A stretch of 64,000 bases of DNA from Polyangia bacterium (GCA_036504295.1 DASXVK010000198.1:1581-65580), one strand, 5' to 3'; positions 3,187 through 64,000 are shown, counted from the stretch's first letter. Notes: generated by a model from the sequence alone, not told the origin. Numbers and translations are program-made.

Positions 3187-4296
3187 TCACGTCCGCAGCA
3201 CCGCCACCAGATCGCGCACCGCCTCGGGGTCCTCGCGCCGCGGCCGCTCCCCCGCGCGGAGGAGGTCGACGAGCTCGCGGGCGCGGCAGTCGGCGGTGTG
3301 CTCGGCCAGCACGCGCTCGCGTCCCGCCGCGCCGATCCGCGCCAGCTCGTGCGCCGGCAGGGCCAGCGCGTCACAGACCTCGGCGGTCGTGCGCGCGACC
3401 AGGATCTCCTCGCCCGGCACGAAGAAGGCCTCGAGCCACGGCCACGGCTCAGAGAGCACGGGCACGCCGCAGGCGGCGGTCTCGAGCAGCTCGGGCGAAG
3501 GGCAGAACCCCAGCGCCCCGATCGCGCCGCGCGTGACGTGCAGCGAGAGGCGCGCCGAGCAGGAGAACGCGGCGAAGTCGGCCCGCCGGACGCGCTCGTA
3601 CGCGACGTTGCCCGGCACGGTGGGGTCCGTGGCCGGCGCGGGGCCGCCGATCAGGAACCGGTGCTGCGGGAGCCGCAGCGCCGCGGCGAAGCAGAGGGGC
3701 TCCAGCGCGCGTGCGTCCTGCGGCCCGGCGGGCACGAGGCACGCCAGGTCGGCGCGGAAGCGCGGATCGGCCGGCACCGGGCGATGCTCGTCCGGGTCCA
3801 CCCACGGGTACAGCGGCGCCACCCGCCGCGCCCCCAGGCGGGACCGGAGCCGCTCGAGCGCCTCGCCGCCGGTGACGCTGAGCACGAGGTCGAACCGCGG
3901 CAGCGCGAGGCTCCGCACGAAGCTCGTCTGCCGCGCCCCGGCCTGCCGCAGGGTCGCCGCCGTGTCCAGGTCGTAGAACACGCGGCGGGGCGCGCGCGAT
4001 TCGAGGAGCGCCTCCGCGGCCGGGAGCCCATCGGGGCACTGCGAGGTCACGATGCCGGCGTCGGCCCGCGCGAGCTCCCGGCGCGCGGCGGGGAGCGCCT
4101 CGTCCCAGCTCTCGTACGGCCGGAGGTCGCAGCCCGGGATGGGCCGGAGGTCGCGGGCGCCGGAGCCGACGCGGCGCTCGAAGAACGTGACCCGGTGCCC
4201 GAGCTGCCCCAGCGCGCGGCCGAGCGCGCGCCACGCCTCCGGGCGGGTGTCACCCCGCGCCGGACTGATCGGCGCCCCGAAGACGACCAGCTTCAT
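3187..4296 (-). CDS. Glycosyltransferase (CgeB-like / GT1-type C-terminal domain)
   Basis: 369 aa: MKLVVFGAPIS...GHRVTFFERR...LETAACGVPVLSEPWPWLEAFFVPGEEILVA. This layout is typical of CgeB-family glycosyltransferases. Confidence 0.75.
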   Translation of the reverse strand: MKLVVFGAPISPARGDTRPEAWRALGRALGQLGHRVTFFERRVGSGARDLRPIPGCDLRPYESWDEALPAARRELARADAGIVTSQCPDGLPAAEALLESRAPRRVFYDLDTAATLRQAGARQTSFVRSLALPRFDLVLSVTGGEALERLRSRLGARRVAPLYPWVDPDEHRPVPADPRFRADLACLVPAGPQDARALEPLCFAAALRLPQHRFLIGGPAPATDPTVPGNVAYERVRRADFAAFSCSARLSLHVTRGAIGALGFCPSPELLETAACGVPVLSEPWPWLEAFFVPGEEILVARTTAEVCDALALPAHELARIGAAGRERVLAEHTADCRARELVDLLRAGERPRREDPEAVRDLVAVLRT

Positions 4297-4395
4297 GCGC
4301 CATGGGATGCAGGGGGCGCATGCGCCCTACCAGGTTTCTGCGCCACGCGCACGGCCCCGGAGCGCGCGCACCACCACTGGACCGCGAGGACGCCG

Positions 4396-5007
4396 CTACT
4401 CCTCGTCGGCCTCGGGCTCCGGCGGGAGCCAGAGCAGCGACAGGTCGAGCTCGACAGCGTCGAACGGCTCCGCGCGCACGCGCACGTCGCCGGCGTGGGT
4501 GGCGCAGAGCAGCCACCCGGCGGCCTCGAGCCGATAGACCTCGAGCGTGCGGGCGTCGGGAGAGATGAGCCAGACGTGACCCACCTTGGCGCGGGCATAG
4601 AGCGGCAGCTTGACGGCGCGATCCTCGGCCTCGGTGGACAGCGAGAGGACCTCGCAGATCCAGTCGGGGACCACCGTCAGCGGCCCCTTCCGCGGTGGCG
4701 TGCCCCAGCGCTCCTTGCGCCAGCCGCCCAGGTCCGGGACGCGGATCTCCTCGCCGAAGCGGATGCGCGGCTCGTCCCGGATGATCCAGCCGCCGGGGCC
4801 GCCGATGCCCAAGCGGAACGGCGCGCCCAGCAGGACGCCCAGGTCCGAGGTCGCGTGGGCGTGAGGCTCGTCGGGCCGCGGGGTGACGACGATCTCGCCG
4901 GCCACGATCTCGCCGACGTAGCCCTCCGGGACCCCCTCCAGGTCGTCCCAGGTGGCGGGCCGGCCTCGTGGGCGGGCGGGGAATCTCGGGTGCCGGGACA
5001 TCACCAC
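4396..5007 (-). CDS. Uma2-family (DUF820) putative endonuclease
   Basis: 203 aa with the family layout GEIVAGEIVVTP.P...H...PDLGGWRKER...PDWICEVLS.ST...D...K...YA...V.H.W...P....EVY. Confidence 0.85.
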   Translation of the reverse strand: MVMSRHPRFPARPRGRPATWDDLEGVPEGYVGEIVAGEIVVTPRPDEPHAHATSDLGVLLGAPFRLGIGGPGGWIIRDEPRIRFGEEIRVPDLGGWRKERWGTPPRKGPLTVVPDWICEVLSLSTEAEDRAVKLPLYARAKVGHVWLISPDARTLEVYRLEAAGWLLCATHAGDVRVRAEPFDAVELDLSLLWLPPEPEADEE

Positions 5008-5042
5008 TACTGTAGAGCGCCCGACGGGGCGTCACAAGGTGG

Positions 5043-7385
5043 CTACCGCCGCTCGTGCAGCCCGGCGAGGATCTTCTCGGGGAGGAAGGGCGAGCGCAGC
5101 AGGCGCACGCCGACGGCGTCGTAGATGGCGTTCGAGAGCGCCGGCAGCGGGCCGTTGATGCTGATCTCGGACACGCTCTTCGCGCCGTACGGGCCGGTGG
5201 GCTCGTAGGAGGGCACGAGGATGGTCACCATCTCGGGCAGGTCCCGCGTCGACCAGATCTTGTAGTGCCGGAAGCTCGGGTTGCGGCAGCGGCCGTGGTG
5301 GTCGAAGATCATCTCCTCGGTGAGCGCGTAGCTGAGGCCGTTGAGCACCGCGCCCTCGGTCTGGCCCTCGGCGAGCCGCGGGTTGATCGCGGTGCCGCAG
5401 TCGACCGCGGCGACGTACTTCACCACGCGGCAGAGGCCGGTCTCGCTGTCGACCTCGACCTCGGCGAAGTGCGCGGCGAAGGGCGGGGGCGACGCGCTGG
5501 TGATGTGCGAGGCGTGGCTCGCGATCTGGTGCTGGTCGGTCTCGTAGAGCGTGCGCAGCCCGATCTGCGCGAACGACACCGTGCGCCCGTCCGGCGCGAC
5601 GACGTGCCGGTCGACGGTGGCGAGCGTCGCGGCGTCGCCCGGCGGCAGGCCGAGCACCTCGGCGCCGACCTGCAGGATCTGCTCGCGCACGAGCACCGCC
5701 GCCTTGCGCACCGCCTCGCCCGAGAGGTACGTCGTCGACGAGGCATACGCGCCGACGTCGAACGGCGTGAGATCGGTGTCCGACGAGTACGTGATGACGT
5801 GATCGAGCGGCACCCCGAGCGCCTCGGCCGCGATCTGGGCGAGCACGGTGTCCGACCCGGTGCCGAGGTCGGTGGCGCCGACGAGCAGGTTGAAGGAGCC
5901 GTCGTCGTTCATCTTCAGCGACGCGGCGCCCATGTCGATCTGGGGGATGGACGAGCCCTGCATCAGCGCGCACATGCCGACGCCGCGCCGGTAGCGGCCC
6001 GTCTCCTTCCGCCCGACGCCGCGCTTCGCCGTCCAGCCGATGGCCTCGGCCCCGGCGGTGAGGCACGCGTCGAGCTCGCAGGAGCCGATCTTCTGCTCGA
6101 CGCCCGCCGTGCCCTCGCCGAGCGCGCGGAAGACCGCCGAGCCCTGGCCCTCGCGGACGTGGATCTTGCGCCGGAGCTCGACCGGGTCCAGGCCGAGCTT
6201 CTCCGCCGCCATGTCCATCGCGATCTCGACGGCGAAGGCGGCCTGGGTGGCGCCGTAGCCGCGGTAGGCGCCGCCCACCGGCAGGTTCGTGTACACCGAG
6301 TCGGCGCGGAAGCCGACGTTCGGGCACGGGTAGAGCGGCAGGGTCTTCGAGCCGCAGTTGCAGGCCACGGTGAGCGCGTGCGACCCGTACGCCCCGGTGT
6401 TCGTGAGCACGTCGAGATCGAGGGCCGTCGGCGTGCCGTCCTGCGCCAGGCCGAGGCGGAAGCGCACGCGGCCCGGGTGGCGCGTCCGCGCGGAGACGAA
6501 CTCCTCGTCGCGGGTGTACTCGTGCTTCACCGGCCGCCCGCTGCGCAGGCACAGCATCGCGACGAGGTCCTCGAGCACCTCCTGCTTGGCGCCGAACCCG
6601 CCGCCGATGCGCGGCTTGATGACGCGGATCTTGCGCACCGGCACGCCGCAGGACTGGGCGACGATGCGGCGGACGTGGAACGGCACCTGGGTGGAGGTGC
6701 GGATGACGAGACGGTTCCGCTCGTCGAGCCAGCAGATGGTGACGTGCGGCTCGATCGGCGTGTGCTGGCCGTACTGGGTGACGGTGGTGACGTCGACGGT
6801 GACCGCGGCCCCCTCGAGGCCCTCCTCGGGGTCGCCGATCTGCATGTCGACGTGGCCGGCGAGGTTGCGCGCCGGGTCGTAGGGCACCGGGATGATGGCC
6901 CTGCAGTCGGGCTCGTCGTGGATGACTGGCGCCCCCGGGTCCATCGCCCGCTCGAAATCGAGGACCGCGGGCAGCTCCTCGTACTCGACCTTGATGAGGC
7001 GCACGGCCTGCTCGGCGATGGCGCGCGTCTCGGCGGCCACCGCCGCCACGCGGTCGCCGACGTAGCGCACCTTGCGGTCGAGCATCGGCGTGTCGTACGG
7101 CGACGGCTCGGGGAAGCCCTGGCCGGCGGTGGTGTGCAGGTTGCGCGGCACGTCCTCGTGGGTGAGGACGCAGACGACGCCGGGCAGCGCGCGGGCGCGG
7201 CTCGCGTCGATGCGCGTGATGCGGGCGTGGGCGATCGGGCTCCACAGGAACTTCGCGTGGAGGAGGCCGGGGATCTGCAGGTCGTCGACGAAGACCGGAG
7301 CCCCGGCGGCGAGGCCGAGGGCGTCGACCTTGCGCTCGCTCGTGGCGACCGTCGTGAAGGGCGGCCCGGCGTGCTTCTGGCTCAT
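5043..7385 (-). CDS. Xanthine dehydrogenase-family molybdopterin-binding large subunit
   Basis: The internal ATG at 7385 (MSQKHAGPPFTTVATSERKVDALGLAAGAPVFVDD) overlaps the stop of the FeS subunit gene (ATGA). Family motifs include GGGFGAKQ, GAYRGYGATQ and the C-terminal PYGAKSVSEISINGP. The upstream 120 aa of the track ORF are Arg-rich junk. Confidence 0.9.
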   Translation of the reverse strand: MSQKHAGPPFTTVATSERKVDALGLAAGAPVFVDDLQIPGLLHAKFLWSPIAHARITRIDASRARALPGVVCVLTHEDVPRNLHTTAGQGFPEPSPYDTPMLDRKVRYVGDRVAAVAAETRAIAEQAVRLIKVEYEELPAVLDFERAMDPGAPVIHDEPDCRAIIPVPYDPARNLAGHVDMQIGDPEEGLEGAAVTVDVTTVTQYGQHTPIEPHVTICWLDERNRLVIRTSTQVPFHVRRIVAQSCGVPVRKIRVIKPRIGGGFGAKQEVLEDLVAMLCLRSGRPVKHEYTRDEEFVSARTRHPGRVRFRLGLAQDGTPTALDLDVLTNTGAYGSHALTVACNCGSKTLPLYPCPNVGFRADSVYTNLPVGGAYRGYGATQAAFAVEIAMDMAAEKLGLDPVELRRKIHVREGQGSAVFRALGEGTAGVEQKIGSCELDACLTAGAEAIGWTAKRGVGRKETGRYRRGVGMCALMQGSSIPQIDMGAASLKMNDDGSFNLLVGATDLGTGSDTVLAQIAAEALGVPLDHVITYSSDTDLTPFDVGAYASSTTYLSGEAVRKAAVLVREQILQVGAEVLGLPPGDAATLATVDRHVVAPDGRTVSFAQIGLRTLYETDQHQIASHASHITSASPPPFAAHFAEVEVDSETGLCRVVKYVAAVDCGTAINPRLAEGQTEGAVLNGLSYALTEEMIFDHHGRCRNPSFRHYKIWSTRDLPEMVTILVPSYEPTGPYGAKSVSEISINGPLPALSNAIYDAVGVRLLRSPFLPEKILAGLHERR

Positions 7386-7879
7386 GGCTGCCTCGCGTCG
7401 TCGGGCGTCTTCGTCCCGGCGGCGCGCAGCACCGCGGCGGCGCGCAGGACGGCCTCGATCTGCTTGACGTACCCGGTGCACCGGCACAGGTGCCCGTCGA
7501 GCGCCGCCTTCACCTCCGCCTCCGTCGGCGCGGGGTTCTCGTCGAGCAGCGCCTTGGCCGACAGGAGCATGCCCGGCGTGCAGAAGCCGCACTGCACCGC
7601 GCCCGCGTCGGCGAAGGCGAGCTGCAGCGGGTGCGGCTGGTCGACGGTGCCGAGCGCCTCGACGGTGGTCACGGCGCGGCCCTCCGCCTGGGCGGCGAAG
7701 AGCAGGCACGACTCGACGGGCACGCCGTCGAGGAGGACGGTGCACGCGCCGCAGTCGCCGGTCTCGCAGCCGCGCTTGACGCTGAGGCAGCCGGCATCGC
7801 GCAGGACGTCGATGAGGAGGTCGCGGGCGGCGATCTCGATCGCGCGGGCCGCGCCGTTGATGGTCACGTGGAGCTTCAT
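7382..7879 (-). CDS. (2Fe-2S)-binding small subunit of the molybdenum hydroxylase
   Basis: MKLHVTINGAARAIE...RGCETGDCGACTVLLDG...SCL...QCGFCTPGM...CRCTGY. These are the classic two-cluster motifs. Its ATG overlaps the FAD-subunit stop. Confidence 0.9.
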   Translation of the reverse strand: MKLHVTINGAARAIEIAARDLLIDVLRDAGCLSVKRGCETGDCGACTVLLDGVPVESCLLFAAQAEGRAVTTVEALGTVDQPHPLQLAFADAGAVQCGFCTPGMLLSAKALLDENPAPTEAEVKAALDGHLCRCTGYVKQIEAVLRAAAVLRAAGTKTPDDARQP

Positions 7880-8760
7880 TGCGGCCTCGCGGTGGCGCCC
7901 GCGACGGCGCCCGTGGCCCGGGCCACGGCGGCTTCGAGCGCGCGCCGGACGAGCACCTCCGCCAGCTCGCGGCGGTACTCGCGGGTGGTGCGGTAGTCGC
8001 TGGCGATCTGCGCCTCGTCGCGGCCCGCGCGGGCCGCCACGGCGAACGCGGCCGCGCCGGCCTCCTTGCCGAGCAGCGCCGACTCGGCGGTCTTGAGGCG
8101 CTGGGGCAGGGGCCGCAGCGCGCCGACCGCGATGCGGACCGCGCAGATCTCGCGGCCGCGCAGCTCGACGTAGGCCGCGGCGTCGCACAGCGCGCAGTCG
8201 ACGGCGGTGCGGCCGAACTTGACGAACGCCGACCCGGCCTCGGCCGGGGCGCGCGGCACCAGGACCTCCGTGAGGATCTCCGCCGAGCCGATGAGCTTCG
8301 ACGGGTGCCGGACGAAGAGCTCGGCGGCGGCGACGTCGCGCGTGCGGCTGACGCCCCGCACGCGGCAGGTCGCGCCCAGCGCGAGCAGCATCGGCGGCAG
8401 GTCGGCCCAGGGCACCACGCCGACGACGTTCCCGCCCACGGTGATCTGGTTCTGCAGCAGGCGCGAGCCGGCCGCGCCCGCGGCCTCGGCGAGGCCGGCG
8501 AGCCCCGCCTCGACCACCGCGCGCGAGCGCGCCACCTGGCGGGCGGTCGCCATCGCCCCCAGGCGCAGGTTGCCGCCGGAGAGCGAGATCGTGTTCAGGC
8601 CGGTGCGCGACAGGTCGACGAGCGCCTGGACCTTCGGGTCCGCGAGGAACACGAGGCTCGTGCCGCCCGCGAGCGGCCGGGCGCGGCCGCCGCCCTCGGC
8701 GAGCAGCGCCAGCGCCTCCTCGACCGAGCGGGGGTGATGGACATCAGCGAGGTTCCTCAT
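7876..8760 (-). CDS. FAD-binding subunit of the molybdenum hydroxylase (CoxM/XdhB-like)
   Basis: 294 aa: HHPRSVEEALALL...PLAGGTSL...NQITVGGNV...SDYRTTREYRRELA. Confidence 0.9.
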   Translation of the reverse strand: MRNLADVHHPRSVEEALALLAEGGGRARPLAGGTSLVFLADPKVQALVDLSRTGLNTISLSGGNLRLGAMATARQVARSRAVVEAGLAGLAEAAGAAGSRLLQNQITVGGNVVGVVPWADLPPMLLALGATCRVRGVSRTRDVAAAELFVRHPSKLIGSAEILTEVLVPRAPAEAGSAFVKFGRTAVDCALCDAAAYVELRGREICAVRIAVGALRPLPQRLKTAESALLGKEAGAAAFAVAARAGRDEAQIASDYRTTREYRRELAEVLVRRALEAAVARATGAVAGATARPQ

Positions 8761-8997
8761 CTAGCCTCCGCCGACTGGCAGCAGGATCTCGACCCGGGCG
8801 CCGTCCGCGACCGTCGCGCCGGTCGCGGCCCGGGTGCCGTCGAGCAGCACCGTCAGGCGTGCGCCCTCGGCGGGGGAGTAGCCGAGCTGGGCGAGCAGCG
8901 CCGCCACCGCGGTTTGGGCCGGGACCTCGAGGCTGAGCCGCCGCTCGGCGCACGGGCGGCGCACGGGTCCCACGAACTCGACGACGATGTGGGCCAC
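8761..8997 (-). CDS. MoaD/ThiS-family ubiquitin-like sulfur-carrier protein
   Basis: 78 aa ending in ...VEILLPVGGG. The size and C-terminal Gly-Gly match the beta-grasp sulfur-carrier family. It abuts the downstream FAD-subunit gene with no gap. Confidence 0.7.
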   Translation of the reverse strand: MAHIVVEFVGPVRRPCAERRLSLEVPAQTAVAALLAQLGYSPAEGARLTVLLDGTRAATGATVADGARVEILLPVGGG

Positions 8998-56148: not shown

Positions 56149-56364
56149 GACTGAGTCTCCCTTCCCGCAGCTGGATCGGCCCGCCGCTCACGGCGCCGTC
56201 CAGTCGCGGTTTCGGTCCACGCGATCAGATGCGCCGGGCGCGCACCCGGCCGCTCGTGGCGCGCGCCTCGACGGAGCCGCCCAAAATTTGACCACTGGTT
56301 GACCCCGTGGTGTAGTCGCTCCCAGTCGCGGCGCCTCCCGACGGCGCGCGCGCAACCTGGGGCG

Positions 56365-57384
56365 ATGACAAACCTAAGAACCTGCGCTTGCGCCTGCGTC
56401 GTCGCGCTCTGCGCGCTCGGCGGCAGCCGGGGCGCCGCCGCGCCGCAGCGCACGGCCGCGCTCCTCAACGTCAGCTTCTCCGGCGACTTCACCGCGCGCG
56501 AGCGCGCGGAGCTGCCGCTCGCGGTCCGGCGCGCCCTGGTCGCGGCCGGTCTGACGGTGTTCGAGCCCGAGCAGCTCGACCTCGCGTTCGGCACCCGGCC
56601 CAAGGGCAGCTGTCCCGACGACCGCTGCCGCGTGGACGTGGCGCGCTCCCTGGGCGCCCAGCGCCTGGTCGACGCCCACTTCCGGCGCGACGCCGGCGGC
56701 ACCGGCGTGACGCTGGTCGTCTTCGACGCCGAGGTGAGCGCGCCCGCCGGCACCACGACCCGCTTCTGCGCGCGCTGCGACACGGCCGGGATGCGCAAGA
56801 CCGTCGTCGAGGCGGCGCGCGCCGTCGTGGCGGGCGACACGGCCGTGCCCGCGGGCCGGCTCGTCGTGCGCACCATCCCCGGGGCCGCCACCGTCACCGT
56901 CGACGGCCGCGTGCTCGGCGAGACCGACACCGACCTGCCGCTCGCCGCGGGGTCGCACCTGGTGGTGCTCGAGCGGGCCGGCGCCACGCGCGTCGAGAGC
57001 CGGGTCGAGGTGAAGGCCGGCGCGGTGACCAGGATCGAGCTGGCGCTCGCCGCCGTGGGCCTGCCCTCGGCCGAGCCGGGCGCCGGCGGCGTGACCCAGC
57101 CCGCGCGCCGCTCCCTGCGGCCGTGGGCCTACGTGCTCCTCGGGGCCGGGGTCGTCGGCCTCGTCGCCGGCGGCACCTTGTACGGCCTCGGCTGTGAGGC
57201 CGAAGGCGAGGCCCGGCGCTGCCCGCGGCTGCCGAGCGTGCGCACCGGCGGCCTCGCCCTCCTCGCCACCGGCGGCGCGCTCGTCGCCGGCGGCATCGTG
57301 CTCTGGGCCTTCGACGGGCGGCGGGAGCGCGCCCGGATCGCCGCGGGGCCCGGCACCCTCACCCTGAGCCTCGACTGGCGCTAG
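56365..57384 (+). CDS. PEGA-domain protein with a C-terminal membrane segment
   Basis: ATG 56365 with signal peptide MTNLRTCACACVVALCALGG. PEGA-like unit: LVVRTIPGAATVTVDGRVLGETDTDLPLAAGSHLVVLERAGATRVESRVEVKAGAVTRIEL. Two hydrophobic helices lie near the C-terminus. Confidence 0.75.
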   Translation: MTNLRTCACACVVALCALGGSRGAAAPQRTAALLNVSFSGDFTARERAELPLAVRRALVAAGLTVFEPEQLDLAFGTRPKGSCPDDRCRVDVARSLGAQRLVDAHFRRDAGGTGVTLVVFDAEVSAPAGTTTRFCARCDTAGMRKTVVEAARAVVAGDTAVPAGRLVVRTIPGAATVTVDGRVLGETDTDLPLAAGSHLVVLERAGATRVESRVEVKAGAVTRIELALAAVGLPSAEPGAGGVTQPARRSLRPWAYVLLGAGVVGLVAGGTLYGLGCEAEGEARRCPRLPSVRTGGLALLATGGALVAGGIVLWAFDGRRERARIAAGPGTLTLSLDWR

Positions 57385-57395
57385 GAGCGGTTGCG

Positions 57396-59354
57396 ATGCG
57401 AAGAGTCTCCCTGCTCGCGTGGGTCGCCGCGGTGAGCGTCGGCGCGTGCGCCGACCCGCGGTACTGCGACGAGAATACGCCCTGCACCGATCCGGCCTAC
57501 CCGGTGTGCGCGGTGACGTGGCACGAGTGCGAGGCGTTCACCGGCGACGCCGGCGTCGACGGGCCCGTGGCCGTGCCCGACGGCGGCTGCGCGGTCGGCC
57601 GCCACCGCTGCGGCGAGACCTGCGTGGCGGACGACGATGCCCAGAGCTGCGGCGCGGTGTGCGTCGCGTGCGGCGGCGGCACGCCCGCGTGCGTGGGCGG
57701 CACCTGCGCGTGCACCGCGAGCTCGTGCGCGACCGGCGAGGTGTGCGCCGGAGGCGCGTGCGTGAGCGGCACCTGCACGACCGCGGCCGACTGCCAGAAC
57801 CCGCCGCCGTGCCGCGTGGCCGCGGGGGCGGTCTGCAACGCGAGCCACCTGTGCGAGTACCCGCTCGCCGCGACCGGCGCCACGTGCTCCACCGGCCACT
57901 GCTGCGCGGGCACGTGCGTGCCCAACGATCCGGCGCACTGCGGCGCGAGCTGCGCGCCGTGCGGCGCGGTCACCGGCGGGAGCGCCACCTGCGACGGGAC
58001 CGCGTGCGGCTACGCCTGCGGCGGCGGCTACTACGACAGCGGCACCGCCTGCGCCGCGTGCGACGTCCCCGACCACTGCGGCGCGAGCTGCCAGTCCTGC
58101 CCGGCGGTGGCCGACGCCGACCGCACCTGCGCCGCGGCGTGCGGCTACGAGTGCCACGGCGGCTTCTACGACACCGGCGCCACGTGCGCCGCCTGCGCGA
58201 TCGACACCCACTGCGGGCCGAGCTGCGTGGCGTGCGCCGGCACGACGCCGACGTGCCTCGGTACGCGCTGCGGCTGCACGGCGGCCTCCTGCGGCACCGG
58301 CGCGACGCCGATCTGCGACGACGCGAGCAAGGCCTGCCGCGGCTGCGTGGCCCACGGCGAGTGCGCGAGCGGCGCCTGCGACTTCACGTCGGGCGCGTGC
58401 GTCGCGGCCGCGGACGTCATCTATGTGGACAAAGGGGCGAGCTGCCCCGGCACCGGCGCCGCCGCGACGCCCTACTGCGACTTCCCCCCGGCGCTCGCGA
58501 CGGTGACCGCGGGCGCGACGAGGTGGCGCATCGTGATGCAGCCGGGCATCTACGCGTACAGCGGCGCGCAGATCGTGCAGGACCGCAAGGTGATGGTGAT
58601 CGGCGCGGGGACGGGCGCGACGGAGCTGGTGCAGAACCTGGGGAACACCCCGGTGCTTCAGGTGCTCGGCACCGGCGAGTTGAGCCTGTATCACGTCGTC
58701 CTCCGTGGCGCCAGCGGCGGCTCAGGCGACGGCGTGCTCTGCGGCGGGATCGCCTCGACGGCGACCCTTACGATCTCGGACGCTACCCTCGGGCCCAACA
58801 GCGGGCTCGGGATCAACGGCACGAAATGCGCGGCGACAGTGACTGAGACCAGGCTCAGCGGGAACGTGAGCGGGGGGCTCTCGCTGACGAACTCCAGCTA
58901 CACCGTGGTGAACTGCCTGTTCGTGAAGAACGGGTCGAGCTCGAGCAGCGTCGGCGGGGCGAGCCTGTTCCAGACGCCCCTGAGCGCGACCGCCCTCTTC
59001 GTGAACAACACCGTCGCCGAAAACGCGGCGTCCGGCGGCGCCGTAGGCGGCGTCTATTGCTTCCCGGCGGGCCCGCCGGTGGTGAACTCGATCCTCTGGG
59101 GCAACGGCGGCAGCGGCCAGCAGAGCGGCTGTACCGTCACCTACTCGGACGTGCAAGGCGGCCTGAACGGCACCGGCAACATCAACGCTGACCCGAAGTT
59201 CGTCGACACGGCGAACAACAACTACCACCTCGTCACCGCCGCCCCCGCCTCGCCCTGCATCGACGCCGGCATCACCGCCGGCGCCCCGATCGGCGACCTC
59301 GACGGCAACCGCCGCACGACCGCCCCCGACCTCGGCTGCTACGAAGCGCAGTAG
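57396..59354 (+). CDS. Secreted/lipoprotein with a long Cys-rich repeat region and a C-terminal right-handed beta-helix-like domain
   Basis: AGGAGCGG Shine-Dalgarno sequence. LLAWVAAVSVGAC (lipobox-like). About 330 aa of C-x-x-C/GxC repeats follow (HCGASCAPCG, HCGASCQSCP, HCGPSCVACAG). Next come short parallel-beta repeats and the C-terminal NNYHL...SPCIDAG...DLDGN.R pattern common in pectate-lyase-fold proteins. Confidence 0.85.
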   Translation: MRRVSLLAWVAAVSVGACADPRYCDENTPCTDPAYPVCAVTWHECEAFTGDAGVDGPVAVPDGGCAVGRHRCGETCVADDDAQSCGAVCVACGGGTPACVGGTCACTASSCATGEVCAGGACVSGTCTTAADCQNPPPCRVAAGAVCNASHLCEYPLAATGATCSTGHCCAGTCVPNDPAHCGASCAPCGAVTGGSATCDGTACGYACGGGYYDSGTACAACDVPDHCGASCQSCPAVADADRTCAAACGYECHGGFYDTGATCAACAIDTHCGPSCVACAGTTPTCLGTRCGCTAASCGTGATPICDDASKACRGCVAHGECASGACDFTSGACVAAADVIYVDKGASCPGTGAAATPYCDFPPALATVTAGATRWRIVMQPGIYAYSGAQIVQDRKVMVIGAGTGATELVQNLGNTPVLQVLGTGELSLYHVVLRGASGGSGDGVLCGGIASTATLTISDATLGPNSGLGINGTKCAATVTETRLSGNVSGGLSLTNSSYTVVNCLFVKNGSSSSSVGGASLFQTPLSATALFVNNTVAENAASGGAVGGVYCFPAGPPVVNSILWGNGGSGQQSGCTVTYSDVQGGLNGTGNINADPKFVDTANNNYHLVTAAPASPCIDAGITAGAPIGDLDGNRRTTAPDLGCYEAQ

Positions 59355-59367
59355 GATCGCCGCGGCC

Positions 59368-59746
59368 TCACTTCGGCGTGAACCACCGCGGCACCGCGGG
59401 CGGGGGCGCCTCGTCCGGGGCGGGCTCGGCCTTGGGCGGCGTCCGCTGCACGAGCGCCGCCTCGGCGACGGTCGCGTGGCGGTCCGGGCCGTCGCGTCGC
59501 GGGGCCGAGGTTCACGAAGTCGAAGCGCGCGTCGACGTGCGCGATGGGCCGCTCGCCGCCGCGCGCCCGGTCGAAGAACGGGATGATGCGCACCTCCTCG
59601 GCCGCCATGCGCACCGCCGCGTGCCGGCGCGGGACCACCGTCTGGAGCCGGCTGTGGGCGTCCACCACGACCTCGACCGAGCCGTCGTCCGCGCGAGCGG
59701 AGGCGGTGAGGAGCAGGGCGGCGGCAGCGACGAGCACCGGGCGCAT
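59368..59746 (-). pseudogene. Small secreted-protein gene interrupted by a +1 frame change (pseudogene or sequence error)
   Basis: MRPVLVAAAALLLTASARA DDGSVEVVVDAHSRLQTVVP...HVDARFDFVNLGPA has high GC3. After about 59520 GC3 collapses in that frame. It resumes in the +1 frame (DGPDRHATVAEAALVQRTPPKAEPAPDEAPPPAVPRWFTPK-stop at 59368). Confidence 0.5.
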
Positions 59747-59920
59747 GCGGCGGTTGTAGCACCCGGCCGTCGCGGGCGTCCACCGGCGGCGCCGGCGCGG
59801 GTGCCTACCCGGAAAGGGGTCCTCCCTGGCGCGCCACAGTGGGCTAACGGCTGGTCGGGCGGGCGGCGGCGCCGCGTGGCGCGCACCTGCATTCCCAGTG
59901 CGCACCCGCGACGCCCAGCG

Positions 59921-60150
59921 GCGGCCTGCCCGCGAGGCGGACCGGAGCGAGCCCCGGGGCGTGTTGCGTGCCGACCGCACGGGCGCGGCGGCCTGCCCGC
60001 GAGGCGGACCCGGAACGAGCCCCGGGGCGTGTTGCGTGCCGACCGCACCGGCGCCGCGGCCTGCGCGAAGCGGACCCGGAACGAGCCCCGGGGCGTGTTG
60101 CGTGCCGACCGCACCGGCGCGGCGGCCTGCGCGAGGCGGACCCGGAACGA
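59921..60150. repeat. Tandem direct repeat, about 67 bp x about 3.4 copies
   Basis: Units start at 59921, 59988, 60056 and 60122 (the last is partial). The consensus is approximately GCGGCCTGC(C/G)CGCGAGGCGGACCCGGAACGAGCCCCGGGGCGTGTTGCGTGCCGACCGCACCGGCGC. Each unit contains the palindrome GCCCCGGGGC and a GTGC-cgacc-GCAC mini-hairpin. The array lies about 270 bp upstream of the A2M-like gene. Confidence 0.85.
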
Positions 60151-60422
60151 CGTGGGCTCATGCCGGCCCGGGTCGGCGGGGCGAGCAAATCGCCTCCGCG
60201 GGCGGCCGGCCCGCCGCGAGCGCCTGTGGACCGCGCGTGCGTGCCGGGGCGCCACGCCGGTGCCGCGGCCCGGCCCGGCCGGCGCCCGCTCCGGCGCGGT
60301 CGTCGGTGGGCCGGGCCGCGCGCCGGGGCCCGGCGGGGCCCGCGCAGGCACCCCGCCGGCGCACGCGAGCCGCGGCGCGGCCCGCGCTGTCGCGCGGGGA
60401 GCCGACCGGTGTACGATGCGGC

Positions 60423-63400
60423 ATGCGCCGGACGACGGTCTCCCGTAGCTCACGGCTCCTCCTCCTCGCGCTCCCGGTCGTGGCCCTCGCGGCCGCCCTC
60501 ACGCGGTCGCCGCCGACGCGCGGCGCGCCGCCGCCGGCCGACGCGATGCCCGGGGTGGCCGCGCTGCCGGCGGACGTGCCGCCGGTGCGCGCCGAGCCCA
60601 GCCCCGGCGAGAGCCCGCGCCTGCCCCTCACGGCCGACGCGCGGGACCTCGGGAAGAAGATCGACAGCTACTTCGAGGAGCGGCCGGGGCGGCGCGTCTA
60701 CGTGCAGGTGGACCGGCCGCTGTACCGGCCCGGCGAGACGGTGTGGGTCAAGAGCTGGGACCTGCGCGTGCGGGACCTGGGCGCGGCGGCCGACGCCGGC
60801 GCGCCCGGGGCGGCGGCCTGCGAGCTCGTGAGCCCCCGGGGCGCGGTCGTCACGCGCCGCGAGGTGAGCGCCGAGGGCGGCTTCGCCGCGACCGAGCTCG
60901 ACCTCGCGGCCGACCTCCCGGGCGGCGAGTACACCATCCGGGTCCACGCGGCCGGCGGGGAGCGCGGCGAGCGCACCCTGATCGTCGCCGGCTACGAGCA
61001 GCCGCGCATGAAGATGAAGCTCGAGCTCACGCGCAAGGCCTACGGGGCCGGCGACCCGGTCGAGGCCGCCTTCGAGCTCCGGCGCCCCACGGGCCAGGCG
61101 CTGCCCGGGCACCCGGTGCGCGCGGTCGCCCGCGTCGACGGGGTCGAGCTGCCCACGGTGAAGGTCACGACCGACGCGCGGGGCGACGCCAAGGTGCGCT
61201 TCCGGCTGCCCGCGGCGATCAGCAGCGGCGACGCGCTCCTCACGGTCCTCGTGGACGACGGGGGCACGACGGAGTCGATCTCCCGGCGCATCCCGGTCGT
61301 GGTCAAGGCGCTCGACCTGGCGCTCCGGCCCGAGGGGGGCGAGCTCGTCGAGGAGGTCCCGTCGCGGGTCTACTTCGAGGCCCAGGATCCGTTCGGCAAG
61401 CCCGCCGACGTCGAGGGCCACGTCGAGGACGATCGCGGCGAGGTGGTGGCGCGGTTCCGCAGCCACAAGAACGGTCTCGGCCGCTTCGTGCTGCGGCCCG
61501 TGCGCGACCGGCGCTACGCGGCCGTGGTCACCGCCCCTGTCGAGGCCCGGAGCCGTCACGCGCTGCCCGCGGCGCGCGGCGAGGGCTGCGTGCTGCGCGC
61601 CTACGACGACCTCGACGGCGAGGTCGCCGCCCTGCGCGTGGGCGTGCGCTGCAGCCGCCCGCGCGCGGTGACCGTCGTGGCCGTGCAGCGCGACCAGCTC
61701 ATCGACGCCGCCCGGGTGGCCGTCGCGGTCGGCGCCGAGGCGGTCGTCCACCTGCGCGCGCGGGGCGCGGCGGCCGGCCTGTCGCGCGCTCAGGGGGTCG
61801 CGCGGATCACCGTCTTCGGCGAGCAGCTCGAGCCGCTCGCCGAGCGCCTCGTCTACCGCAACCGCCGCCAGCGCCTCACGATCGGCCTCCACCCCGACCG
61901 CCCGAGCTACGGGCCGCGGGACGGCGTGGCCCTGACGGTGCGCACCACCGGTCCCGACGGCCGGCCGGTCGCGGCGGAGGTGGCGCTCTCGGTCGTCGAC
62001 GACACCGTCATCGCCTACGCCGACGACAAGCAGGGCCACCTCCTCTCCCAGCTGCTGCTCGAGCCGGAGCTCGCGGGCCGCGTCGAGGAGCCGAACGTCT
62101 ACCTCGACCTGACGAAGCCCGAGTCCGCGCTGGCGCTGGACCTGCTGCTCGGGACCCGCGGGTGGCGGCGCTTCGAGTGGCAGCCGGTGATGGCCCACGA
62201 TCCCGTCGCGCGCGCCGCGGAGCTGCGGCGCCAGGCCGAGGAGCGCCGCCGCGAGGAGCTCGCCCAGCGCCGCGAGGAGGCGGAGCGCCGCCGCGAGGAG
62301 ATCCGGGCGGCGCGCGAGGAGCGCGAGCACCGGCGCATGCCCAAGGCCAAGGCGGGCGCGATCTTGCGGCTCCTGGGCGGCGCCGCCGGCGCGGGCCGGG
62401 CGGACGGTGACCGCCTGGGTCTCGGGGGTGGCGCCATCGCGGAGGGCCGGATGGGCGGCGCCGGTCTGGGCGCGGGCCGCGGCGCGCCGCGCCCCGAGCG
62501 GGTGGGCGCGCTCGCGCCGAAGGAGCCCCGGCGACCGGCGGCCGCGCCGCGGTTGCCGCCCGCGCCCGGGCCCGCGCAGCAGGCCCTGGGGCCGCGCGCG
62601 GCGGAGCGTCCGGTCGCGGACGCGGACGCGGCCGCGGCCGCGAAGGAGCTGCTCCCGCGGGCCCGGCGCCTCGTGCGCGTGCAGGCCGCGCACATCCAGA
62701 TCCTCGACAAGGTGTACTTCGCGTCGAAGAGCGCCGCCATCCGTCCGGCGTCGTACCCGATCCTCGACGCGGTCGCCGCCGTCCTGCGCGACCACCCGCA
62801 GATCCGCCTCCTCGAGGTGCAGGGCCACGGCGACGCCGTCGAGGCGAAGGACGCGCCGACCCTGGCCGCGCGGCGCGCGCACGCCGTCGTGGCCTACCTG
62901 GTCCGCAAGGGGGTGCCGCGCGAGCGGCTCCGGCCGCGCGGGTACGGCGCGCACCGGCCGATCGCGAGCAACGCCACGGTCGCCGGGCGCGACCGCAACC
63001 GCCGCGTCGAGTGGCTGATCCAGCAGCGCGACGAGCCGGGCCTCGCGGTCGCGCGCGTCTTCCCGGTGCCGGACTACCGCGGCCAGCCGTCGGGGCCCCG
63101 GACCGACTTCCGCGACACGGTGTACTGGGCGCCGCGCGTGCGGACCGGCGCCGACGGCCGCGCGCAGGTGCGCTTCACCCTCTCCGACGCGGTCACCTCG
63201 TTCCGCGTGGTCGCCGAGGGCGTCGCCACCCGCGCCTGGCGCCACGGCCTCGTGGGCCGCGGCGAGAAGGTGTTCCGCTCGGACCGGCCCCTCAGCCTGA
63301 GCGCGCGGCTGCCGCTCGAGGTGTCGGCGGGCGACGAGGTCCTCGTGCCCGTCACGCTCACCAACGAGCGCGGCGAGCCCGTCGAGGCTCGGCTGCAGGT

Positions 63401-64000
63401 CGAGCACGACCAGCTCCTCGCGGCCGCGGGCGCGCTGCCGGCCGAGCGGCGGCGCCTCGCGCCGCGCGCCCGCGACACCACCTACGTCCCGCTCCGGGTC
63501 GTGGGCCAGCGCGGCCAGGCCCACCTCAAGGTCAGCGCCAGCGCCGGCGGCTACGCCGACGAGGTCGCCCGCGAGCTGGCGGTGACGCCGGTCGGCTTCC
63601 CCCTGGTCGCGTCCCGCGCCGGCAACGTCGGCGGGCGCGGCGGCGTGCCCGTGCGGGAGGCCGTCGATGTGGGCCAGGTCGTGCCCGGCTCCGTGCTCGC
63701 CCAGGTCCAGCTCTACCCGAGCCCGGTCGCGACCATGGTCGGCGGGCTCGAGGGGCTGCTGCGGGAGCCGAGCGGCTGCTTCGAGCAGGCCTCGTCCTCG
63801 AACTACCCGAACGTCATGATCGCCTCCTACCTGCGCCAGCACCGCGTCCACGACGAGCAGCTCCTGGGCCGGGCGAACCGTCTGCTCGACTCGGGCTACC
63901 GGCGCCTGACCGGCTTCGAGTCGCGGTCGAAGGGCTACGAGTGGTTCGGCGCCGACCCGGCCCACGAGGCGCTCACCGCCTTCGGGCTGGTCCAGTTCCT
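60423..64000 (+). CDS. Alpha-2-macroglobulin-family thioester protein with an internal OmpA/MotB-like domain (3' end outside the window)
   Basis: Not in the ORF track because there is no stop in the window. I translated it by hand; the frame stays open from ATG 60423 to 64000. Signal peptide MRRTTVSRSSRLLLLALPVVALAAAL. MG-type repeats. ALSVVDDTVIAYADDKQGHLLSQLLLEPEL. E/R-rich coil at 62217-62335. OmpA-like VYFASKSAAIRP...RRAHAVVAYLVRKGVPRERL..RGYG..RPIA...RNRRVEWLI at about 62670-63025. TDFRDTVYWAPRVRTGADGRAQVRFTLSDAVTSFRVVAEGV. Thioester motif GCFEQ at 63774-63788. Confidence 0.85.
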   Translation, partial: MRRTTVSRSSRLLLLALPVVALAAALTRSPPTRGAPPPADAMPGVAALPADVPPVRAEPSPGESPRLPLTADARDLGKKIDSYFEERPGRRVYVQVDRPLYRPGETVWVKSWDLRVRDLGAAADAGAPGAAACELVSPRGAVVTRREVSAEGGFAATELDLAADLPGGEYTIRVHAAGGERGERTLIVAGYEQPRMKMKLELTRKAYGAGDPVEAAFELRRPTGQALPGHPVRAVARVDGVELPTVKVTTDARGDAKVRFRLPAAISSGDALLTVLVDDGGTTESISRRIPVVVKALDLALRPEGGELVEEVPSRVYFEAQDPFGKPADVEGHVEDDRGEVVARFRSHKNGLGRFVLRPVRDRRYAAVVTAPVEARSRHALPAARGEGCVLRAYDDLDGEVAALRVGVRCSRPRAVTVVAVQRDQLIDAARVAVAVGAEAVVHLRARGAAAGLSRAQGVARITVFGEQLEPLAERLVYRNRRQRLTIGLHPDRPSYGPRDGVALTVRTTGPDGRPVAAEVALSVVDDTVIAYADDKQGHLLSQLLLEPELAGRVEEPNVYLDLTKPESALALDLLLGTRGWRRFEWQPVMAHDPVARAAELRRQAEERRREELAQRREEAERRREEIRAAREEREHRRMPKAKAGAILRLLGGAAGAGRADGDRLGLGGGAIAEGRMGGAGLGAGRGAPRPERVGALAPKEPRRPAAAPRLPPAPGPAQQALGPRAAERPVADADAAAAAKELLPRARRLVRVQAAHIQILDKVYFASKSAAIRPASYPILDAVAAVLRDHPQIRLLEVQGHGDAVEAKDAPTLAARRAHAVVAYLVRKGVPRERLRPRGYGAHRPIASNATVAGRDRNRRVEWLIQQRDEPGLAVARVFPVPDYRGQPSGPRTDFRDTVYWAPRVRTGADGRAQVRFTLSDAVTSFRVVAEGVATRAWRHGLVGRGEKVFRSDRPLSLSARLPLEVSAGDEVLVPVTLTNERGEPVEARLQVEHDQLLAAAGALPAERRRLAPRARDTTYVPLRVVGQRGQAHLKVSASAGGYADEVARELAVTPVGFPLVASRAGNVGGRGGVPVREAVDVGQVVPGSVLAQVQLYPSPVATMVGGLEGLLREPSGCFEQASSSNYPNVMIASYLRQHRVHDEQLLGRANRLLDSGYRRLTGFESRSKGYEWFGADPAHEALTAFGLVQF

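Follow-up and report, generated by a model that had tools for sequence, protein, structure and literature searches.

An OmpA-type domain at the bait site of a macroglobulin-family protein from Polyangia, and its putative role in docking a protease trap on peptidoglycan

Background

What might a domain of the peptidoglycan-binding type do at the place where a macroglobulin carries its protease bait? The question is raised by a gene at the end of a 64,000-nucleotide stretch of DNA from a Polyangia bacterium (GCA_036504295.1, DASXVK010000198.1:1581-65580), called here the window. An earlier note, made from the sequence alone, had described the product of this gene as an alpha-2-macroglobulin (A2M)-like thioester protein with a charged coil, a Gly-rich linker and an OmpA-type domain in the gap between two A2M signatures. 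It had offered two mechanisms: a trap tethered to peptidoglycan through its bait segment, or a cleavage that releases or exposes a cell-wall anchor. Here we describe the domain architecture of the protein, the exact position of the inserted domain and the recurrence of the design among relatives, and we weigh the readings that could account for it. On balance, we lean towards a periplasmic protease trap that would be docked on peptidoglycan through the OmpA module.

Gene and domain architecture

The gene opens with an ATG at position 60423 and runs without a stop codon to the edge of the window (60423..64000, plus strand, as are all features of the gene given below), in agreement with the earlier note. 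Its 1192 codons, in continuous translation, encode residues 1-1192 of a 1592-residue thioester-containing protein of the alpha-2-macroglobulin family that extends past the window. They are 100% identical to the first 1192 residues of NCBI entry HEY3353543.1 (P0001 in our set), which comes from a Polyangia metagenome-assembled genome (MAG) and carries the label "MG2 domain-containing protein".

The metagenomic source speaks for a trivial explanation of the unusual architecture, namely that an assembly chimera or a frameshift has merged an OmpA gene into a macroglobulin gene, and mis-assembly between 62.1 and 63.1 kb had been raised as a concern. However, the third-codon-position GC content is 0.98 over the open reading frame (ORF) and remains at 0.95-1.0, in one phase, in every 300-nt interval, including 62.1-63.1 kb and both junctions of the insert. 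A second copy of the protein, 1591/1592 identical, is encoded on a separately assembled JGI contig, its sole difference (F766I) being located inside the OmpA module. Four orthologues (P0002-P0005, 64-73% identity, from separate samples and contigs) have the same architecture, six more distant lineages share the insertion point, and the macroglobulin fold needs the sequence on both sides of the OmpA module to be complete. Because of the single coding phase, the near-identical independent copy and the four orthologues of the same design, we regard an artefact as effectively refuted, with a negligible residual probability, and the join as part of a real gene.

From the N- to the C-terminus, the protein comprises an array of macroglobulin (MG) domains, LNK-like helices, a Glu/Arg helix of 45 residues, about 107 disordered Ala/Gly/Pro residues, an OmpA_C-like domain, the alpha'NT plug, the Pfam A2M domain, and the TED with an intact GCFEQ motif. 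Within the window, Pfam reports MG2 at residues 91-182 (E-value 2.8e-19), OmpA at 765-860, A2M at 899-992 (PF00207, 4.1e-09) and the start of TED_complement at 1103-1188. In the full-length protein TED_complement is complete (1103-1385, 4.4e-28), and a C-terminal domain at 1477-1578 matches bMG10 (9.9e-06) and A2M_recep (4e-05), giving the order MG2, OmpA, A2M, TED and receptor-type C-terminus for the whole protein. An AlphaFold2 model of the 1192 residues (63 homologues in the alignment, mean pLDDT 77) was compared with known structures by Foldseek, and retrieved ECAM, C5, C3, TEP1, CD109 and A2M with E-values from 1e-27 to 1e-19, at about 11-12% identity to every solved A2M, TEP or complement member. 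With an MG array, CxEQ in the TED, a split MG domain accompanied by LNK and plug, and an MG8/receptor-binding-type C-terminal domain, the protein is assigned by these features to the alpha-2-macroglobulin/thioester-protein superfamily.

The array of MG beta-sandwiches (aa 90-526, 60690..62000), delineated by Pfam MG2, by model strands with pLDDT ~90-97 and by Foldseek, ends in the first half of the split MG domain, with the strand VVDD at 524-527. In the model, about four complete MG domains precede the split one, compared with five in eukaryotic A2M and C3 and far more in ECAM; this macroglobulin family may have a smaller MG ring. The LNK-like segment (aa 527-590, 62001..62192) follows the split MG domain as a set of helices in the model and is conserved in the family as far as GTRGWRRFEW. 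Its mean identity is 83% in the clade of the window protein, with G577, R579, G580, R582, F584 and W586 invariant.

Both signatures that had been taken to flank the bait are present, ALSVVDDTVIAYADDKQGHLLSQLLLEPEL at aa 520-549 and TDFRDTVYWAP at aa 894-904, about 345 residues apart (the earlier estimate was about 330), and both flanks are genuine bait-adjacent elements of A2M. On the left, the Pfam A2M_BRD matches of the relatives stop at the VVDD strand, directly before the LNK-like segment; this flank corresponds to the C-terminal end of their A2M_BRD. On the right stand the plug, discussed below, and the Pfam A2M domain (PF00207, aa 899-992, 63117..63398), which spans the second half of the split MG domain together with the next MG domain and whose profile matches ECAM, SaA2M, A2M and A2ML1. 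The TED, recognized by Pfam TED_complement, starts at aa 1103 (63729..64000 within the window). Its thioester motif GCFEQ, correctly reported as intact, lies at aa 1118-1122 (nt 63774-63788) and is invariant in 64/64 aligned family members.

The protein begins with a hydrophobic helix (aa 9-27, 60447..60503), also a helix in the AlphaFold2 model, which may be a Sec signal peptide or else remain uncleaved as an anchor in the inner membrane. In this clade the N-terminal helix is the most hydrophobic of the family (15-residue maximum 2.8-3.0). None of the five orthologous proteins has a Cys in the N-terminal 45 residues, and hence none has a lipobox.

The insert at the bait site

The gap between the two signatures contains all that had been claimed for it, i.e. 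a Glu/Arg stretch, a Gly/Ala/Pro stretch and a full OmpA module, although the first of these is not a coil in the sense of a coiled coil. The charged segment (aa 594-638, 62202..62336) appears in the model as one long helix with pLDDT 91-97. It has exactly 45 residues in all five orthologous proteins (58% identity) and consists of 16 Arg, 13 Glu, 8 Ala, 4 hydrophobic and a few other residues, 64% of the total being charged, with 12 opposite-charge pairs in the i/i+4 and 14 in the i/i+3 spacing. The coiled-coil reading was dropped, since the hydrophobic residues follow no heptad pattern and the model shows one isolated helix. The segment is probably a rigid ER/K-type single alpha-helix spacer, with an estimated length of about 6.7 nm if wholly helical (at a rise of 1.5 Å per residue).

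The linker that follows (aa 639-745, 62337..62657) is rich in Ala, Gly, Pro and Arg (composition A29 G20 P14 R12) and predicted to be disordered, as part of a low-confidence stretch that extends in the model over residues 640-761 (pLDDT < 40). It varies between 89 and 118 residues among the orthologues, with 29% identity, and of all parts of the insert it is the one most like a classical bait.

The linker leads into an OmpA_C-like domain of the peptidoglycan-binding type (aa 755-868, 62685..63026), on which Pfam, NCBIfam, a PDB search and the model agree. Pfam PF00691 matches aa 765-860 over profile positions 1-98 of 98 (E-value 4.6e-18, 65.8 bits against a cut-off of 27.2), and the NCBIfam matches are to peptidoglycan anchors of the YiaD, PA1041, Pal and MotB type. 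In the PDB, 68 sequences were retrieved at E<=1e-3, with end-to-end matches to YiaD (2k1s, 6e-15), PA0833, Rv0899, Pal and MotB. Asp804 (in GHGD) and Arg818 (in RRA) align with GYTD and QRA of YiaD, PA0833 and Rv0899, and NRRVE at 859-863 falls on the canonical column of the solved OmpA_C-like domains, in line with the completeness ascribed to the module by the earlier note. Asp804 and Arg818 are the predicted ligand residues, the Asp and Arg at these positions of OmpA_C-like domains being in contact with the diaminopimelate of the stem peptide. Peptidoglycan association is described as mediated by two conserved residues (PMC6572160). The module has a fixed length of 114 residues and 70% identity among the orthologues, compared with 64-73% for the protein overall, and by this measure is as conserved as the rest of the protein. 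In the model, an alpha/beta OmpA-like fold at about 762-870 is followed by coil at 871-898, and beta-strands resume at 899.

The OmpA fold ends at about residue 868, some 24 residues before the plug. The alignments define the intervening connector (aa 869-890, 63027..63092), composed of a variable charged 9-mer, QRDEPGLAV (aa 869-877), and the conserved ARVFPVPDYRG; R878, F880, P881 and P883 of the connector are invariant in 64 family sequences. The alpha'NT plug, GPRTDFRDTVYW (aa 891-902, 63093..63128), was identified from the family alignment and from a profile match to human A2M, and R893, D895, F896, R897 and T899 are invariant among the same number of sequences. A single-sequence PDB search with the plug region was too weak, and a 22-sequence profile was needed; it matches residues 726-831 of human A2M (6tav_A) with an E-value of 5.8e-5. 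In a local alignment, R893 and F896 fall on R732 and F735 of human A2M, and these coordinates agree with the profile match.

The residues of the alpha'NT plug were named by Harwood et al. In their account, every native A2M-family protein has this plug running through a channel made up of MG2, MG3 and LNK, and once the bait is cleaved the plug must retract through this channel to trigger the conformational change (PMC9352918). They also note that native complement factors have already undergone a furin cut on the N-terminal side of the ANA domain (PMC9352918). Judged by sequence, the succession of LNK-like helices, flexible linker, folded domain, about 24 residues and plug is the arrangement of C3, with OmpA replacing ANA. 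The claim that OmpA is found where the bait sits is correct as regards the site; the module, however, does not replace the bait, but adjoins the C-terminal end of a long linker. Nor is a folded domain at this position a novelty, as the anaphylatoxin domain of C3, C4 and C5 provides a precedent with similar spacing to the plug.

Relatives and recurrence of the design

The next 115 database matches after the clade of the window protein (P0006-P0120, 46-57% identity, 1365-1558 residues) are without OmpA. They originate mostly from Myxococcota and "Deltaproteobacteria" MAGs, some being labelled Rubrivivax or Burkholderiaceae; the protein sits in a large uncharacterised macroglobulin family centred on Myxococcota. 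Between the same two anchors these relatives have 124-264 residues of Ala/Pro/Gly-rich low complexity, and no Pfam domain was found in the longest of these linkers. The low-complexity tract is found at this site throughout the family and exceeds the baits of characterised macroglobulins several-fold in length; it is itself an undescribed feature. About 60% of the relatives without OmpA have a lipobox, and many others have ordinary signal peptides.

An exhaustive phmmer search with aa 555-915 against 1.84 billion representative proteins yielded end-to-end matches limited to the window's own cluster, and further macroglobulins with OmpA at the bait site (P0136, P0182, P0161, P0198/P0271 and P0240/P0273). 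P0136 has a short linker. In the others the linker holds thrombospondin-type-3 (TSP3) repeats, so that a whole TSP3-OmpA cassette occupies the site, of the same kind as that carried by free-standing myxobacterial OmpA proteins; TSP3 with its calcium-binding DxDxDG motif and OmpA are seen at aa 540-700 of P0182, at aa 1-70 of P0161, and in P0271 and P0273. The module of P0136 (aa 620-714), which comes from a Lys-rich and seemingly lower-GC organism, reads GHAV where the ligand Asp (GHxD) would be expected, and may fail to bind peptidoglycan in the canonical manner. A scan of species-representative genomes with two peptide patterns added one more protein, encoded at 4273-8925 (plus strand) of locus L022, a 1550-residue macroglobulin whose bait site holds a short basic linker and OmpA and which also has a lipobox (LLISVAGSGC); it is potentially anchored twice, to a membrane and to peptidoglycan. 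A general rule by which a lipid anchor is swapped for a peptidoglycan anchor was considered and dropped, given this combination of lipobox and OmpA and the ordinary signal peptides of many relatives that lack OmpA.

In all, OmpA occupies this site in at least six further, more distant lineages of macroglobulins, behind linkers of other kinds. At least three kinds of upstream linker are represented, and the lineage count is a lower bound. The placement of the module is constant: in 9/9 OmpA-bearing sequences from seven lineages, OmpA ends 8-20 residues (15-30 by a coarser figure) before the conserved RVFPxP motif, which itself lies about 15 residues before the plug. The same nine sequences invariably have Arg-Ala and N-x-R-x-E, and eight of them the ligand Asp. 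The nearest free-standing modules (45-53% identity) belong to small Myxococcota OmpA proteins, some of them with TSP3, which are a plausible donor type. In a rough neighbour-joining tree, calculated from a biased sample, the clade of the window protein nests among the relatives that lack OmpA, and the remaining lineages with OmpA are on deep branches.

We found no paper on macroglobulins from myxobacteria, or on any macroglobulin that contains an OmpA domain, and the databases label the OmpA-bearing macroglobulins as "OmpA family protein" or "MG2 domain-containing protein". The earlier note had not recognised the architecture as described. As far as the literature is concerned this holds, but the search for other proteins combining A2M and OmpA, which the note had suggested, did find more of them; the design is not unique, and some of its carriers already bear the OmpA label. 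The parts are familiar, while their combination and its position are not described.

Proposed mechanism

The reading that we favour, by a modest degree of belief, is that the protein, a member of the alpha-2-macroglobulin superfamily, serves as a thioester protease trap in the periplasm and is docked on peptidoglycan via the OmpA module. A periplasmic location is proposed because OmpA_C domains act there, Myxococcota are diderm and the relatives are lipoproteins. The chain would leave the MG ring within the split MG domain, where the bait is located, and pass through the rigid 45-residue helix, which may serve as a spacer, and the approximately 107 disordered residues; it would then fold into the OmpA_C-like domain and re-enter about 24 residues later through the plug with R893 and F896. 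Through the OmpA module the protein would attach non-covalently to the peptidoglycan of its own cell, and the trap, in particular its trigger region, would be held at the wall. Of the two mechanisms envisaged at the outset, the peptidoglycan tether is the better supported, while simple release of an anchor is unlikely because the module is joined on both sides and stands 24 residues from the plug.

The favoured reading extends to the firing of the trap. Since the module is at the anaphylatoxin position and the plug must retract through the narrow MG channel, a folded, wall-bound OmpA would act as a stopper for this retraction. Cuts in the long upstream linker should not fire such a trap, because a domain that is folded and bound to the wall could not pass through the channel behind the plug; they would yield a two-chain molecule that is still native, like furin-processed C3. 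The firing cut would have to fall in the short variable connector (aa 869-877), the candidate trigger site, or destroy the module. After firing, the thioester fragment would stay attached through the shared MG domain, and OmpA would stay on the N-terminal fragment, so that the complex of protease and trap would remain on the wall. A bolder proposal, which we put forward tentatively and with low confidence, is that the OmpA module represents a bacterial equivalent of the anaphylatoxin "stopper". Docked on peptidoglycan, it would keep the plug in the MG channel, and the trap would survive cuts in its long linker and fire only upon cleavage of the short connector at the wall or destruction of the wall-bound module. 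In a more extreme version, the exposed thioester would react with the free amine of a peptidoglycan stem peptide held by the module, which would fix the complex covalently to the wall.

The low-complexity tract of the relatives without OmpA is presumably the ancestral bait, and in the window protein a disordered, fast-evolving linker (29% identity) has been kept upstream of OmpA. Both facts would suit a classical long-bait trap, in which any cut in the ER-helix or linker fires, as in human A2M, and OmpA is a passenger on the new N-terminus of the thioester fragment that keeps this fragment on the wall. We consider such a trap rather unlikely. The plug-in-channel model needs the segment N-terminal of the plug to traverse the channel, and a folded, wall-bound domain of 114 residues, 24 residues from the plug, should block the retraction; in native complement factors, the furin cut N-terminal of the ANA domain has already been made (PMC9352918).

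Several points weigh against a wall-docked trap with its trigger in the connector. The connector is 59% identical in the clade and fixed at 9 residues, unlike a typical hypervariable bait. The ligand Asp is absent in one lineage, that of P0136 (GHAV), and the C-terminal part of the OmpA module has a pLDDT of only ~50. Peptidoglycan binding, periplasmic location and protease trapping are all proposed from homology. The geometry of the channel could differ, given the roughly four complete N-terminal MG domains of the model, fewer than in eukaryotic A2M, and both the threading of residues 869-902 through an MG channel and the placement of OmpA are putative. Finally, pbpC is absent near the macroglobulin in the window and in the orthologous loci examined, and these loci show no conserved operon partner.

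Some features of the protein would also agree with a role as a structural or covalent tether of the envelope, not primarily as a protease inhibitor. The very hydrophobic, Cys-free N-terminal helix could be an inner-membrane anchor, the rigid helix of fixed length (45 residues) resembles a ruler, the lineage of L022 combines lipobox and OmpA and has two anchors, and the ANA-like position of the module is closer to C3 than to A2M. The MG/TED scaffold would then span the periplasm from a membrane anchor to peptidoglycan, and the exposed thioester would covalently tag an envelope component or an invader, in the manner of C3 or TEP opsonins. This seems improbable to us, since the closest characterised bacterial relatives by fold, ECAM and SaA2M, are protease traps, the protein has kept the plug, the thioester motif and a C-terminal domain of the receptor-binding type just as inhibitors have, and nothing specific indicates a target other than a protease.

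Comparison with known systems

With C3, C4 and C5 the protein shares a folded domain in the split MG6 shortly upstream of the alpha'NT plug (about 24 residues here, and about 20 between the anaphylatoxin domain and the plug of C3), a cleavable linker upstream of the inserted domain, and the thioester, TED and MG architecture. The query TM-scores in Foldseek are highest for C5 and C3 (0.34-0.37, at about 12% identity). In contrast to these factors, the inserted domain is predicted to be an alpha/beta peptidoglycan binder of the OmpA_C type instead of a four-helix anaphylatoxin, in a bacterial and presumably periplasmic context, and no match to C345C, the C-terminal domain of complement, was found in the Pfam scans at E<=0.01. 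The relation to C3/C4/C5 is best described as a positional analogy and not as family membership.

ECAM (YfhM) of E. coli and SaA2M of Salmonella, of type I, are bacterial protease traps with a thioester (CxEQ), for which a role in protecting the cell wall jointly with PBP1c has been proposed (PMC5764988). ECAM (5a42) gives the best Foldseek E-value, 3.6e-27, whereas the query TM-score to ECAM and SaA2M is 0.26, below those of C5 and C3, at about 11-12% identity. They are lipoproteins of about 1650 residues with extra N-terminal MG domains, a short bait and pbpC as a neighbour; the window protein has no lipobox, no pbpC nearby, a 345-residue insert with OmpA and a eukaryote-type TED_complement signature, and its core without the insert amounts to about 1290 residues, against about 1650 for type I. 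It lies outside type I of the bacterial A2Ms with respect to lipobox, adjacency to pbpC and size or similarity.

MagD (YfaS), of type II, is likewise a periplasmic bacterial macroglobulin with a bait region, and is held at the envelope by the MagB complex (PMC5764988). Type II proteins have no CxEQ and belong to a six-gene mag operon, whereas the window protein has GCFEQ, and no six-gene mag/yfa-type operon was seen in the window or in the orthologous loci examined. It also falls outside type II, as characterised by the lack of CxEQ and by the mag/yfa operon.

Human A2M and A2ML1 have in common with the window protein the R-x-x-F-x-x-T-x-x-W plug, the split MG6, the thioester and the receptor-binding-type C-terminal domain. 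Human A2M differs in being a soluble plasma tetramer and in its bait, which is short (about 40 residues), unstructured and devoid of any folded domain. The OmpA_C-like anchors YiaD, PA0833/PA1041, Pal, MotB and Rv0899 share the full PF00691 domain with the canonical Asp, Arg and NRRVE. In those proteins, however, it is the C-terminal periplasmic domain of a barrel, a lipoprotein or a stator, whereas here it is internal and tied on both sides.

Genomic neighborhood

The genes around the macroglobulin gene, in the window and three orthologous loci, encode a PEGA protein, a sulfatase-like protein, a tandem M16 peptidase, alanine racemase and several unknown proteins. For the downstream context we relied on the contigs of the orthologues. 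There, a sulfatase-like protein of about 900 residues and a tandem-M16 peptidase of about 910 residues are conserved in convergent orientation in three loci (L001, 6925-13621; L002, 12530-17289; and the contig of P0004), and alanine racemase follows in L001 and the P0004 contig, where the contig reaches far enough. The protease trap thus has a large peptidase and an enzyme of peptidoglycan-precursor synthesis as neighbours, which may or may not be meaningful. A conserved operon partner was sought as a candidate and rejected, as the synteny is limited to the convergent downstream genes.

The host lineage (Polyangia, Myxococcota) includes predators, and OmpA-type domains generally bind stem peptides of the diaminopimelate type. 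The macroglobulin could, in principle, be an exported factor directed at prey, in which OmpA binds exposed prey peptidoglycan and targets the protein to lysed prey. We find this very improbable: no secretion-system signal or partner gene was found at the loci examined, OmpA_C domains and the TSP3-OmpA cassettes of the sister lineages are typically periplasmic parts of envelope proteins, and most members of the family are lipoproteins.

Upstream in the window, the PEGA-domain protein (56299-57384, plus strand, 361 aa) and a Cys/Gly-rich protein of 652 residues (57396-59354, plus strand, no Pfam match) both have a strong coding signal; the latter is not homologous to the ORF upstream of the orthologue in L002. 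Between it and the macroglobulin gene, the third-position GC is 0.98 at 59.5-59.8 kb, a sign of genuine coding sequence, for which the best-fitting ORF is at 59339-59980 (minus strand, 213 aa, no Pfam match). A 66-bp unit is repeated 3.5 times in tandem at 59918-60150 (94% matches) in a region of 80-83% GC, about 270 bp upstream of the start codon. No sigma-70-like promoter or intrinsic terminator motif was found in 59300-60500.

Conclusions

Ever since their discovery, bacterial macroglobulins have been proposed to protect the wall, together with PBP1c, after a breach of the outer membrane, and the link between macroglobulins and the wall has so far rested mainly on the adjacency of their genes to that of PBP1c (PMC5764988). 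A peptidoglycan-binding-type domain built into the trigger region would be the first direct structural link between trap and wall. Selection appears to favour this design, because it occurs repeatedly, in no fewer than seven lineages and behind different linkers. For the plug-in-channel model it constitutes a natural experiment, with a folded domain beside the plug outside the complement system and a prediction of where cleavage should occur. If the tentative reading of the module as an anaphylatoxin equivalent is true, the protein would represent an independent bacterial invention of a two-step, surface-localised activation similar to that of C3. The OmpA module is also evidence that the large, uncharacterised macroglobulin family of Myxococcota works in the periplasm, and docking on the wall, if true, would supply the older notion of wall protection by bacterial macroglobulins with a physical basis.

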